Shown here piece by piece: positions 48,965 through 62,641 of a DNA stretch of 64,000 nt. The notes below the pieces were generated by a model. That model did no database searches, was not told the origin of the DNA, and saw only the letters and a program-made list of their open reading frames with translations. The translations under genes and the position numbers were made by a program. The stretch's first letter is position 1; each line of letters starts with the position of its first letter. Source of the DNA: a virus (taxonomy: Duplodnaviria; Caudoviricetes); IMG/VR virus record IMGVR_UViG_2910903598_000004, positions 55,964 to 119,963 of that record; one strand, written 5' to 3'.

Positions 48965-49050
48965 CATTGACGATGGTTCTGTTTTACAGTCTTCTAAAAC
49001 GGCAGTAGAGAGCTGGGGTTTGCCGCCTTTCATTGACAATGATTCCGTTT
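48965..49050 (-). CRISPR. Type II-like mini-array A (1 full + 1 partial repeat, one 30-nt spacer)
   Basis: Repeat 48965-49000 GTTTTAGAAGACTGTAAAACAGAACCATCGTCAATG (36 nt); spacer 49001-49030; partial repeat 49031-49050. Confidence 0.8.
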
Positions 49051-49103
49051 CTTTAATCGTATAGACCATTTTTCAGTAATTATACTTACAATCAATAATA
49101 TTC

Positions 49104-50276
49104 TTAGAAAAACCTAAATTTATCCTTTTGATCACTCGGTACCGCATAAATACGTTTGATTTTCTGTCCAATATATAATTTGTCTAAAATATCCGTAATT
49201 TTCTTGCCTTCATCTGTTTTCTCTTCATCTTGACTTTCATGCGTATAAGCAATATCATACTCTGGTTCTGGATTTGTAACATGAAACATTAACATTCTTT
49301 TATCCTTATCAATATAGTTATTTGAAAAATTCATTGGAAATTCGCCAATATATTCTCCAACATAAGATAATGGACGAATATTATCTGGAAGATATATACT
49401 CATATCAGTAATTGTATTGTCATACAGCTGCCATTCTTTTATTTTTCCACTTAATGTTGCCTGATTTTCAAATTCTACAATAATTTTTATGTTCTTATAC
49501 TGACTTATTCTGATAATATTAAGATCATTAATAGCTTCCTGAAATTTTAATCCATTGTTTAGTTCGAAAGCAATGGACCGTAAACAGTCATAGTTAAGAT
49601 TCATTCGTACACTAAAAGCAATCACATTTTCAATTTCATCATAATATTGCTTGTCTAACTTATCTTCCATATAATCACGAATTTCATCTGCTGTTGGATA
49701 TAAAAATCTAAAATGATAATGAAATCTTCCAGGACGATTTATCAAATATTGACTTAAACTTTGAATCTCATTACATGTAATCACAAACAGTTTCTTTCCT
49801 GCACTTACTCCATCAAATAAAGATAACATCTCCGCTTGACAATTATGTTTCTTTTCATCAAAAGTTTTATCGTATTCATCAAACAGTATCATAACTGTTT
49901 GCTCAATTTCTTCAAGAAAGTTTGCAATTCCCTCATGATATTCATTAACCAATATAACAGGTATCCCTTTTTTTCTTGCTTTCAATCCTAAACACTTAGA
50001 AAAAAGTGACTTTCCAATTCCTTTATCTCCACTTAGAATTACTCCAAGATTTCGATTCATCTTATCCATGGAATTCAACACTTTCTTGACTTTATCTAAA
50101 TGCTGACCATAAATTTTTGTTTCTGGAATCTCAAAATCGTGTGCTTCTAGTAAAGAAAAAATTCTTGTTTCTGGATCATAATCCACCCGATAAGTTTTTG
50201 GTGGTAGTTGATCGTACGTGGTAATCGCATTATTAAAAATTCTATATCTTTTACCTGATTCTACAATATGCATCAA
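49104..50276 (-). CDS. AAA+ ATPase
   Basis: LSGDKGIGKS, ILFDEYDK, ITCN, INRPGRF. Confidence 0.85.
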   Translation of the reverse strand: MMHIVESGKRYRIFNNAITTYDQLPPKTYRVDYDPETRIFSLLEAHDFEIPETKIYGQHLDKVKKVLNSMDKMNRNLGVILSGDKGIGKSLFSKCLGLKARKKGIPVILVNEYHEGIANFLEEIEQTVMILFDEYDKTFDEKKHNCQAEMLSLFDGVSAGKKLFVITCNEIQSLSQYLINRPGRFHYHFRFLYPTADEIRDYMEDKLDKQYYDEIENVIAFSVRMNLNYDCLRSIAFELNNGLKFQEAINDLNIIRISQYKNIKIIVEFENQATLSGKIKEWQLYDNTITDMSIYLPDNIRPLSYVGEYIGEFPMNFSNNYIDKDKRMLMFHVTNPEPEYDIAYTHESQDEEKTDEGKKITDILDKLYIGQKIKRIYAVPSDQKDKFRFF

Positions 50277-50467
50277 ACATTCCTCTTTTCTTATGATATT
50301 TTATATTGTTTGCTTTTTGCGATCTTGCAAATCTCGTAACGACGAGCGGTTTCAATATATTTTTACTTCTACTTTTCCTATTTTGATAAAATTATTGAAG
50401 TTATTGTAATATTTTGATACATTTTTTGTCATAAACATTAACGTTTATAAGAGATATCCGAATTAAC

Positions 50468-52798
50468 TTATCTTGCAAATTCTTTGGCAAATTTCTTCGC
50501 TCTTGTTTCAGTCAACTCATGATAATGATGTTCTAATCTCCATCTTGATACATCTACCTGCCAGTTTTCATATAAGTCCATATGCAGTCTTAATAATGCT
50601 GCTTCTGTCTTTTCTCTTTCTTCTAAAAATTCAAGTGCTTTATTCAAATAAGGAATAATATCTGCAAACTGAATCTTCGTACCTCCAATATATACATTTC
50701 CAACCTTTTTGGTTCGAATCACGTATCGGATTAAGACACTGTTTAAATATGTCATATCAAGGTATTCTCCCTCCCTAATTTCCATATTGGCAGTAGAATT
50801 TACCGTATATTTTTTACGTTCAGAAATAAAATACTGATATTCTGTAGCACTATTTGCGACATGATCCAAAGATTGATGATATCCTTTCATAGAATCACTT
50901 CGGGAATCATAATATGTCTCATCTTTTGTCTCAAATCTATAGTTTTTGGGTAGAAATTTTTTTAATGCTTCTGTATCTGATGCAGCATTTTCTCTCTCCA
51001 TTACCTGTTTTATTGTTGGATCATGCTCATCATCTAATGTGAATCCAATAAGTCGATTATTTAATACTCGAATTTCTTTTTTTTCTAATTCCATTTCATC
51101 CCATAAACAGGTAGACTTTTTGATAACATGCCCTATGTTTGTAATATTCGGTCTAATTGGCGTTTCAATGGTTTCAAACTCGATATCAAGAGGATATTTT
51201 CTCATAAATACATCATAATATTCGGTTTTATCCACTTTATTTATCTTATAAAATTTGAAATCTTTCAATGATACATCACGAGTACGATTAGCTTCTCCAC
51301 GTCCACGATTATTGTTCCAGACACCACCTCTCCATCCATATCCATAGCCGTTATCATCTCTTGTAATCCTCATTAAAGTTAAAATGGTATCTCCCTTTTT
51401 CATAACTTCATGATTTGTTCTTTTTAGGATATCTTCTAGTGTTCCGAACCGATCATCTTCTAACCATCCATCTGCCATACTATAGATCACATAAGGATTT
51501 GACTTCATAATAGAACCTATCTTTGGAAGCTTTAAGATTTTTCCTTGATCGACTATTCCCTGCAATATCGCAAAAATAAAGTATCTTCCGGCGATCTCTT
51601 CTTTTTGGGAATTGTGAATGTTTTTTTCGTCTTCATTTGCAATTTCTTTCGTTTCTGGCTTCAAAAACATATTTTCATCTTTCACCTGGACTTTATCATC
51701 ATCTGTCCATCCAATATAAAGATTCTCACCATCCCTGATTAAAATTGCTATTGTGTTTCCGTGAAGTAATTCATATTCTGATAACATGTTATTTCGGATA
51801 TCGGACTGGCAGCGGATTGTTCCATCCTTGCTGATTTTTACTAAAGAAATAGATTTAGGACCTGGTGCAAACATATTCATAAAATCATCTCGAACTTTTA
51901 ATAATTCCTCAAATGTATGTTTACTATATTTTGATCCATCCAAATCATAAATTGCTGCATATCTTCCCAATTCTTCGTTCAAAAATCGGATTTTTTGATA
52001 TAGGACAACAGAATCTTCAACATCCGCATGTTTTCCTTTTCTTAGTGGCACAAAAGTTACAGTTTCTCCCCAATAGCAACGAATGGCATATAACTCTGTA
52101 TCATATATAAATAATTGTCCTTCCAACTCTGCTTTTTTTGATTCTAATTCTTCTTTCTTCTTATTTATTAATGAGATGGTATCTGCATATTTTGCTTCAA
52201 TTTCCTGTTTCATTCGCTCAATCTCTGCTGCTTTTTCTTTTTGCAGATTTTTAAGTTCATCCTGTTTATTTTGAATCTCTTGTTTTTTTGTATCAATGAT
52301 TGATGTAAGATCGTTTCTACATAAATCTTCATTTTGAAAGATTGCCGGCAGCGTTGTTTGAGCTGTTCCTCCCTTGCCTGCTTTTAAAGATATTAAGGAC
52401 TGATCATCTAAGTTTTTAAATAATGTTGAAGTAATATAGTCTTTTGGAGTGACAAAACAGAATGAGCCATAATGAAGGACTGCTAAAATATCGTCTTGAT
52501 ATAAAAGATTCCATGGCAATTTCATCTGGTCTAAATAATTCTGAATTTTAACAATTTCTCCATTTACGTCTACTAACGGTTCATGTGTGTATCGACCCGC
52601 ACATCCCATAGAATATCCTTTATTCAAATATTCTTTGATTTCGTTGTTTATTTCTTTTGACTGATTATTTTTTCCCCAATAATCTTTGTCATATAACTGA
52701 TCAATCCAACAATTTCCTTTTGTTTCTTGTAATCTAAAATTTATGAAACCTACAATATCAAAAATTGCGGTGCCAATTTTTTTTAATCTTCTGCTCAT
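50468..52798 (-). CDS. Large hypothetical protein with coiled-coil segment
   Basis: 776-aa ORF with GGAGG RBS. Confidence 0.75.
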   Translation of the reverse strand: MSRRLKKIGTAIFDIVGFINFRLQETKGNCWIDQLYDKDYWGKNNQSKEINNEIKEYLNKGYSMGCAGRYTHEPLVDVNGEIVKIQNYLDQMKLPWNLLYQDDILAVLHYGSFCFVTPKDYITSTLFKNLDDQSLISLKAGKGGTAQTTLPAIFQNEDLCRNDLTSIIDTKKQEIQNKQDELKNLQKEKAAEIERMKQEIEAKYADTISLINKKKEELESKKAELEGQLFIYDTELYAIRCYWGETVTFVPLRKGKHADVEDSVVLYQKIRFLNEELGRYAAIYDLDGSKYSKHTFEELLKVRDDFMNMFAPGPKSISLVKISKDGTIRCQSDIRNNMLSEYELLHGNTIAILIRDGENLYIGWTDDDKVQVKDENMFLKPETKEIANEDEKNIHNSQKEEIAGRYFIFAILQGIVDQGKILKLPKIGSIMKSNPYVIYSMADGWLEDDRFGTLEDILKRTNHEVMKKGDTILTLMRITRDDNGYGYGWRGGVWNNNRGRGEANRTRDVSLKDFKFYKINKVDKTEYYDVFMRKYPLDIEFETIETPIRPNITNIGHVIKKSTCLWDEMELEKKEIRVLNNRLIGFTLDDEHDPTIKQVMERENAASDTEALKKFLPKNYRFETKDETYYDSRSDSMKGYHQSLDHVANSATEYQYFISERKKYTVNSTANMEIREGEYLDMTYLNSVLIRYVIRTKKVGNVYIGGTKIQFADIIPYLNKALEFLEEREKTEAALLRLHMDLYENWQVDVSRWRLEHHYHELTETRAKKFAKEFAR

Positions 52799-62294: not shown

Positions 62295-62331
62295 AAAGCA
62301 CTCTCCCTTCTCAGCTATTTGAAAATATTTC

Positions 62332-62402
62332 CTGCCACACGGCAGTTCTCGTTTTAACGAGTCTATTCGATTATTCCATTCTTATTTTTACGCACTGTGC
62401 AA
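62332..62402 (-). ncRNA. tracrRNA-like scaffold F
   Basis: TTGCACAGT-GCG-TAAAAAT-AAGA-ATGGAATAA-TCG, hairpins CTCGT-TAAA-ACGAG and CTGCC-GTGT-GGCAG. Confidence 0.8.
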
Positions 62403-62413
62403 AATAATTTGAC

Positions 62414-62641
62414 TATTTAGACATGATCCTATTACACAGTTACAAAACTGAACTCCAAGAATTTTCACGGATATTTTTTATTTAGACATGTTCCTATTAC
62501 ACAGTTACAAAACTCAAATTGACGTTCAGGAAATGCAACAGTACATTTAGGCATGTCCGCGTTACACGGTTACAAAACGCCTTTCTTTTTCAGAAATTTT
62601 ATTTTGTCTTTAGACATATCTCTGTTGTACGGTTACTATTC
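62414..62641 (-). CRISPR. Type II-like mini-array F (4 repeats of increasing degeneracy, 3 spacers)
   Basis: 35-nt repeats 62414-62448 and 62479-62513 GTTTTGTAACTGTGTAATAGGA(T/A)CATGTCTAAATA; 62544-62578; degenerate 62607-62641; spacers 30, 30 and 28 nt. Confidence 0.9.

Follow-up and report, generated by a model that had tools for sequence, protein, structure and literature searches.

Dispersed mini-arrays with their own tracrRNA tails on a cas9-less mobile element: probable Cas9 guides against a rival integrative element

Introduction

What purpose can CRISPR spacers serve on an element that has no Cas9 gene of its own? The question is raised by a stretch of DNA of 64,000 nt (here called the window), bases 55,964-119,963 of the 119,963-bp IMG/VR record IMGVR_UViG_2910903598_000004 (Caudoviricetes; the record is labelled G000 below). 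An earlier note, made from the letters of the window only, had described about eleven spacers in it, taken their clean translation as weak support for capture from phage or plasmid genes, and proposed that their targets would define their function and their protospacer adjacent motif (PAM). Here, we describe the arrays, the target of one window spacer and of three spacers of related elements, and the candidate trans-activating CRISPR RNA (tracrRNA) that is fused to every array. Our data make it probable that the window spacers are genuine type II (Cas9) guides directed at rival mobile elements.

Results

A window spacer matches a gene of another mobile element

Six intergenic mini-arrays (M1 to M6) of this large human-gut mobile element lie on the minus strand at window positions 48,889-62,641 and hold ten spacers in total. 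Each module opens with a degenerate repeat at its 5' end; one to three spacers follow, with 35- to 36-nt repeats between them, and then an intact terminal repeat, a linker, a short anti-repeat and a copy of the RNA family RAGATH-30. The repeats (35-36 nt) start with GTTTTAG or GTTTTGT and are type II-like, and with direct repeats of ~36 nt and unique spacers of ~30 nt the modules have the make-up of type II arrays.

The second spacer of M2 (S2b, 53224-53195) led to a target. Its 3' 24 nt plus a non-G base, a form chosen to avoid arrays, was used as query in a metagenome collection and matched six contigs; the six 5' bases, which were not part of the query, match too, so that four of these contigs are identical to the spacer at 30/30 and the other two at 29/30. 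S2b also matches in each of the ten target contexts fetched later. The flanks of the protospacer are not repeats. It is located at +218 of an orphan open reading frame (ORF) of 169/170 amino acids with a hydrophobic N-terminus and a Lys-rich tail, for which no match was found in Pfam or PHROG. The family of this ORF comprises only 21 clusters in 5.8 billion proteins, and S2b covers its most conserved segment; a comparison of the spacer peptides with the 21 homologues returned the already known matches only.

The target ORF is flanked by small conserved genes on one side and, on the other, by the gene for a surface protein of 2,000-2,500 amino acids that has ricin-type lectin domains as well as Listeria-Bacteroides repeats; the ORF and the gene for this giant protein are separated by an IscB/IS200 transposon in some variants. 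Several gene types (NA37, amidase, ATLF-like, UvrD, DUF6906 and a 464-amino-acid protein) occur both in the target element and in the G000 family, and only ~10% of the DNA of the target contigs aligns with that family, at 75-82% identity. The exact sequence of a 529-amino-acid neighbor protein (L198:405-1991) occurs in 3,091 indexed blocks, and among the contigs with it are some of 1.08 Mb and 1.85 Mb, which argues for chromosomal integration of the target element. On these grounds, the target is a distinct integrative and conjugative element (ICE), very common in the assemblies searched, of which the labelled ones are human-gut metagenomes.

Four protospacers form a hotspot with a common 3' flank

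To find further protospacers, all spacers of the family (59 unique spacers from six elements, 0.99 Mb) were scanned against the fetched target contexts. In addition to S2b (30/30; 3' flank AGAAT or GGAAT), the only spacer of unit 180793 of the mosaic relative G003 matches at 29/30 and +523 from the ORF start, where it overlaps the ORF terminator (3' flank GAAAA); the only spacer of unit 201074 of the relative G001 matches at 27/30 and -89 (GGAAG), and the second spacer of G001 unit 205466 at 30/30 and +317 in another allele (AAAAA). All four protospacers are on the coding strand, inside 645 bp. No other protospacer was found in ~85 kb of the target ICE, and ~40 kb further along it and two more alleles of the target gene contained no additional one.

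The 3' flank reads RRAA in 4/4 protospacers, against a background frequency of 0.048 (p = 5e-6, for a motif chosen after seeing the flanks). The protospacer flanks could therefore be used to derive a PAM, as the earlier note had suggested, and provisionally it is 3' RRAA; a foreign protospacer with a conserved 3' motif is present, in a small sample. All four matched spacer families are tracr-proximal, which fits the view that they are the newest spacers and occupy the single-guide position described below.

Two observations on the target locus may be added. The protospacer of the G003 spacer coincides with an intrinsic terminator hairpin after the 169-amino-acid ORF (L225:10515-10552), ~200 nt upstream of the adhesin gene. 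Furthermore, variants with the IscB/IS200 transposon contain this protospacer twice (L193:1019-1048 and L193:4280-4309); the copy that abuts the transposon is followed by GATTT and has lost the RRAA, and the other one keeps GAAAA. Insertion of the transposon may be an escape route from targeting, or may simply reflect an insertion preference for ATGAA.

RAGATH-30 as the putative tracrRNA tail of natural single guides

Seven hits to RAGATH-30 (RF03055) were obtained in the window, with 60.6-71.5 bits at model positions 1-59 (gathering score 59.5); six of the seven are linked to an array, and an element of 58-63 nt is present at the 3' end of every array. The consensus has a GUAAAAAUAAG core and a single-stranded stretch ending in AUCGAA, followed by two hairpins, and so resembles a Cas9 tracrRNA in its nexus and tail, as in the scaffold of Streptococcus pyogenes. 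Immediately 5' of the core lie bases that can pair with repeat positions ~8-16 and that covary with the repeat between modules, such that every array copy of RAGATH-30 is preceded by an anti-repeat complementary to its repeat. Indeed, in 21 distinct units from six related elements, the mean duplex energy was -9.07 kcal/mol for cognate repeat:anti-repeat pairs versus -6.06 kcal/mol for non-cognate ones. The duplex has only 5-9 bp above the bulge and is shorter than in canonical tracrRNAs. In minimum free energy folds of M1, M2 and M6, the 5' part of the repeat pairs with the anti-repeat in cis, the remainder of the terminal repeat forms a loop and two terminal hairpins follow.

The position of RAGATH-30 behind arrays and, in a relative, beside a Cas9 gene indicates that it is probably a tracrRNA tail. 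Because the terminal repeat is joined in cis to the anti-repeat and the tracr tail, the last spacer of each array would be part of a natural single-guide RNA. RAGATH-30 is said to have come out of the comparative screen of Weinberg in 2017 as a candidate small RNA (sRNA). To our knowledge, it has no assigned function; its Rfam entry gives only "gene/sRNA", and it was named in no paper of the literature searched. A sample of 151 Lachnospiraceae genomes contained no hit to it, and a search of GTDB genomes with the core pattern returned 99 loci, of which 18 were checked and none was RAGATH-30.

Two copies stand apart from the arrays. The one at 52825-52882 (minus strand; 60.6 bits) has no recognizable repeat or spacer upstream, and a weak, eroded remnant at 50314-50372 (minus strand; 37.9 bits, below the gathering score) has no array. 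They may be extra sources of trans-acting tracrRNA, or relics.

Anatomy of the arrays

M1 (48889-49066; all modules are on the minus strand and their parts are given 5' to 3') is composed of a degenerate repeat (49066-49031), spacer S1 (49030-49001; 30 nt, 60% GC), the terminal repeat (49000-48965), the linker and anti-repeat (48964-48947) and RAGATH-30 (48946-48889). In M2 (53079-53326), a degenerate repeat (53326-53291), S2a (53290-53261) and a repeat (53260-53225) precede S2b, which is followed by the terminal repeat (53194-53159), the linker and anti-repeat, and RAGATH-30 (53137-53079). M3 (54770-55077) starts with two degenerate repeats separated by 24 nt and continues with S3a (54981-54952), a repeat (54951-54916), S3b (54915-54886), the terminal repeat (54885-54850) and RAGATH-30 (54828-54770). 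M4 (57689-57869) and M5 (57946-58142) have a single spacer each: a degenerate repeat (57869-57834), S4 (57833-57804), the terminal repeat (57803-57768) and RAGATH-30 (57746-57689) in M4, and remnants of a degenerate repeat (58142-58085), S5 (58084-58060; 25 nt), the terminal repeat (58059-58024) and RAGATH-30 (58003-57946) in M5. M6 (62329-62641) is the longest, with a degenerate repeat (62641-62606), S6a (62605-62579; 27 nt, common to all relatives), a repeat (62578-62544), S6b (62543-62514), a second repeat (62513-62479), S6c (62478-62449), the terminal repeat (62448-62414) and RAGATH-30 (62391-62329). The linker after the terminal repeat is ~10 nt long and has the consensus GGTCAAATAA.

The description of the spacers in the earlier note held up. 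Its roughly eleven spacers and their positions were recovered on the minus strand as ten spacers plus a possible, degenerate eleventh, the 24-nt interval 55041-55018 between the two degenerate repeats of M3. Eight of the ten are exactly 30 nt long, as it had counted, with a period of 65-66 nt (the others being S5 and S6a), and they are all different: no pair has more than 15 matching positions at any offset. By eye, no full-length match had been seen inside the window, and indeed no second copy of a spacer was found at up to 6 mismatches in the 120-kb record and five relatives, orthologous arrays aside. The clean translation of spacers is true as well but says nothing about capture from genes, since random 30-mers are equally open; an open frame was present in 10/10 spacers, in 100% of 5,000 random 30-mers of the window and in 99.4% of shuffled spacers. 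The examples quoted for it (S3b, S6b and S3a) are among the spacers without a matched target. The GC content of the spacers (35.6%) is near that of the window (31.7%), with the GC-rich S1 as the exception.

The window itself is 91% coding under the standard genetic code, nearly all of it on the minus strand. An alternative genetic code had been considered for fragmented-looking ORFs and was dropped because the standard code already gives this result. Among the neighboring genes, SecA-like (723 amino acids) and SecY-like (413 amino acids) proteins are encoded by the element between M5 and M6 (58270-61871), and a nucleoid-associated protein of the NA37 type at 62910-63929.

Spacers turn over at the tracr-proximal end

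G000 is ~97.7% identical, over ~88% of its length, to the CheckV-complete elements G001 (221,898 bp) and G002 (208,951 bp), and the four elements G000, G001, G002 and G005 are ~97.7% identical to one another. Their orthologous arrays agree in the spacer that adjoins the degenerate 5' repeat and differ in the tracr-proximal spacers. M4 has one spacer in G000, the same one and two more in G001, and the same one and a different one in G002; the second spacer of M2 differs between all three of G000, G001 and G002, and in G005 it is the G000 spacer with one change. The stretch compared was 48946-62641 of the window, against L031, L034 and L038. Given the background identity of 97.7%, turnover is fast and polar, at the tracr-proximal end. 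In canonical type II-A arrays, new spacers are added at the leader end, 5' in the transcript; here, the variable spacers lie 3'. The conserved GGTCAAATAA linker may act as a leader-like integration signal.

Cas9 is encoded by a relative, and no Cas1 was found

Type II arrays go with cas9 in the same locus and with the adaptation genes cas1 and cas2 (plus csn2 or cas4). The Cas9 profile TIGR01865 had no match in G000, G001 or G002, and the Cas1 profile PF01867 had none in G000-G003 or G005 (no separate search was made for cas2 and csn2). Since spacers nevertheless turn over, the adaptation proteins must come in trans. The mosaic relative G003 encodes a Cas9 of 1,312 amino acids (TIGR01865, 782 bits), with a stand-alone RAGATH-30 160 nt downstream of the gene and further units of array and RAGATH-30 on both sides; its neighbors are ATLF-like and UvrD-like genes, with no adaptation genes adjoining. 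In related contigs, cas9 is a few kilobases from a Tn916-type xis/int pair and host genes, which indicates that the elements are integrative. The Cas9 proteins of these elements form a clade with at least 71% identity inside it and 42% identity to the closest Cas9 hits outside it, of which the few with a name are from bacterial metagenome-assembled genomes; no close relatives were found in GTDB genomes. The G000 guides would therefore fit an element-borne Cas9 that G000 itself does not have.

Many members of this clade are shortened. The HNH domain of Pfam is absent from at least 16 protein clusters (1,151-1,159 amino acids). One of these proteins, P0008 (L190:10001-13471), differs from the 1,312-amino-acid P0001 (L028:12942-16880) by a clean in-frame deletion of residues ~742-897, with flanks that are 97-99% identical; in our alignment to SpCas9, the lost segment includes the RuvC-II glutamate as well, and the gene is found in the same genomic context as the full-length one. 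P0008 would appear to be an ICE-borne Cas9 that is naturally nuclease-dead or crippled. Directly upstream of cas9, two ORFs (L028:10958-12774 and L190:8034-9833) match the Pfam family ATLF (anthrax lethal-factor N/C-terminal domain), one of which also weakly matches a metallopeptidase family.

Searches with the other spacers

Self- or sibling-targeting was considered and rejected, as none of the 59 family spacers had a non-array match at up to 6 mismatches in the six elements. In G000 and G001, no site combining an 11- or 12-nt seed with RRAA was found, and one 10-nt site versus 0.21 expected; nothing here exceeded chance. Cultured phages (INPHARED, 50,697 records) gave only chance-level matches to the M2 and M6 arrays (E ~1-3), and the plasmids of PLSDB had nothing for M2, M3 and M6; the known target of S2b is missing from PLSDB as well, so this database is blind to the niche. 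For S6c, S6b, S1, S3b, S4 and S3a, the 3' 22-24 nt had no exact match in IMG/VR. The S2b protospacer, run as a control, was negative too, which makes these negatives uninformative for ICE-type targets. Two of the window spacers, S1 and S2b, were searched in the metagenome collection in which the known target occurs; S1 had no match there, nor in 401 Lachnospiraceae genomes. A 13.8-kb DNA query against the 401 genomes returned SecA/SecY-type homology only, which is uninformative for the spacers.

Discussion

The most likely role of the guides is competition between mobile elements. An action against competitors is suggested by the 30/30 match of S2b to a gene of another element, by three sibling spacers that match within the same 645 bp and by the RRAA flank common to all four. 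Two expectations of the earlier note are borne out in part: capture from foreign genes is seen for S2b, in a mobile-element gene, and not for the other nine spacers, and no phage target turned up; the targets do speak to the role of the spacers in that an anti-competitor role is favored, and self-regulation has found no support. In our model, each array would be transcribed on the minus strand, its guides processed and loaded into Cas9, and the guides would serve the element-family-specific Cas9 clade. Cas9 for the G000 guides would be supplied in trans, the gene being present in the mosaic relative G003, and new spacers would be added tracr-proximally by adaptation proteins encoded elsewhere. 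Cas9 would thereby be directed at rival elements in the same host, which targeting may exclude or damage; in the case found here, it would be directed at the gene of 170 amino acids just upstream of the giant surface-adhesin gene of a common ICE, with a PAM of approximately RRAA.

Immunity against phages, with spacers captured from phages that infect the host and protecting the host and hence the element, is the default role of CRISPR spacers, and it would suit the viral classification of the G000 record in IMG/VR and the nine window spacers still without a match. We regard it as unlikely all the same, because M2 and M6 found only chance matches among the 50,697 phage records, because six spacers had no exact match of 22-24 nt in IMG/VR, and because the four targets of the family lie in a conjugative context (T2SSF-like, DUF6906, adhesin, integration in contigs of at least 1 Mb) in which no phage structural genes were seen. 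The presence of seven to eight tracr units without any cas9, one of which (52825-52882) has no spacer, might instead suggest decoy or anti-CRISPR RNAs, that is, tracr-fused guides of a Cas9-less element that occupy or redirect the Cas9 of a rival relative, the spacers being secondary; inhibition of host CRISPR systems by single repeats on viruses has been described before (PMC11656645). Spacers that stay exactly 30 nt long and turn over between elements of 97.7% identity would be superfluous in a pure decoy, four spacers match a third-party ICE beside a common PAM-like flank, and none matches the Cas9-bearing relative G003, all of which makes such a role improbable.

The absence of cas9 and cas1, the degenerate first repeat of every array and the eroded look of M5 and of the copy at 50314-50372 would also be expected of decaying relics, left over without function from a CRISPR-Cas9 locus that lost its cas9. 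Yet seven tracr tails still score above the Rfam gathering threshold, terminal repeats and anti-repeats still covary, and tracr-proximal spacers differ between near-identical elements, one of them matching an extant target perfectly. Together, these features argue for recent acquisition and selection, and there is little likelihood that the arrays are dead. Very unlikely, finally, is a regulation of own or host genes through partial seed matches, as in the autoregulation by tracr-L: the modules are intergenic and stand at the heads of gene blocks, and nuclease-dead-looking Cas9 variants occur in the family, but no match of at least 24/30 was found in the six elements, the only seed site next to RRAA in G000 and G001 was the 10-nt one, and S1 is absent from the 401 Lachnospiraceae genomes. 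Each of these four alternatives is in conflict with at least one observation, hence our ratings of unlikely to very unlikely.

A variant of targeting against rivals has to be considered as well. With a gene for a dead Cas9 on another element, guides such as those of G000 could silence rather than cut the transfer/adhesion operon of the rival, which would be a natural, multiplexed form of CRISPR interference based on single-guide RNAs. The Cas9 variants without HNH and the tight hotspot upstream of the adhesin gene (four independently acquired spacers from three sibling lineages) leave room for such a mode. The spacers are identical to the coding strand, which is not the orientation known to block elongation best, and for this reason we assign the silencing mode a low probability.

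Several points weigh against the view that the window spacers are Cas9 guides directed at rival elements. A target was found for only one of the ten, and the spacers other than S1 and S2b were tested against IMG/VR, phages or PLSDB only; the PAM is based on four protospacers, and the guide modules have weak fold z-scores (-0.6 to -1.7). The supply of Cas9 in trans is our deduction, as would be co-residence with a Cas9-bearing relative, and a host common to the G000 element and the target ICE is assumed. Adaptation at the 3' end would be opposite to the polarity of canonical type II-A arrays.

The closest known system is CampyICE1 of Campylobacter jejuni/coli, an ICE with a type II-C cas9 and no cas1/cas2, on which three short arrays against plasmids are dispersed (van Vliet et al. 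2021; PMC8743540). Common to both are an ICE-borne type II system without cas1/cas2, short dispersed arrays (1-6 spacers in CampyICE1), families of spacer variants, repeat changes that are mirrored in the tracrRNA and spacers against competing mobile elements. G003 and contig L190 are of this kind, with cas9, no cas1 and a Tn916-type xis/int pair by host genes; G000 is without cas9. CampyICE1 always has its own cas9, one repeat type and a single tracrRNA in opposite orientation inside one array, whereas the family described here has 6-15 arrays per element, several diverged repeat/anti-repeat pairs and a same-strand tracr in cis for each array. G000, moreover, has II-A-like repeats, and its target is another ICE and not a plasmid.

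Virus-borne solitary mini-arrays are cas-less, target related or competing elements and depend on an effector encoded elsewhere (Faure 2019; Medvedeva 2019; reviewed in PMC11656645). The arrays of G000 resemble them in being cas-less, in having one or two spacers, in their place on a mobile element and in their direction against competing elements, and the match of S2b and three sibling spacers to a distinct ICE is the kind of targeting described for them. In contrast, viral mini-arrays copy the repeats of the host and use the host effector, and none has been described with its own tracrRNA; the repeat/tracr set of G000 goes with a Cas9 clade specific to these elements and had no match in the 151 Lachnospiraceae genomes.

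A transcript that combines a targeting part with a tracr scaffold is also found in tracr-L of S. pyogenes, reportedly a natural single guide, described by Workman and colleagues in 2021, that represses the promoter of the cas operon by means of an 11-nt partial match. Unlike tracr-L, the modules of G000 have full, acquired 30-nt spacers and a match in foreign DNA, and no self seed matches of that length were found. What is unusual here is the cis-fused tracr on every array, the several diverged repeat/anti-repeat pairs and the upkeep of guides without a nuclease.

In sum, we propose a first target and a provisional PAM for cas-less guide cassettes that have their own tracrRNA and are widespread in mobile elements of the human gut, and RAGATH-30 would thereby be tied to Cas9 guide RNAs. 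Natural single guides with many orthogonal repeat/anti-repeat pairs per Cas9 clade may be of interest to engineers of guide RNAs. "Plasmid warfare by CRISPR" would be widened from one Campylobacter ICE to giant elements of human-gut metagenomes, and the fact that guides are kept and updated without nuclease or adaptation genes raises the possibility that Cas9 and Cas1-Cas2 are shared in trans between elements.

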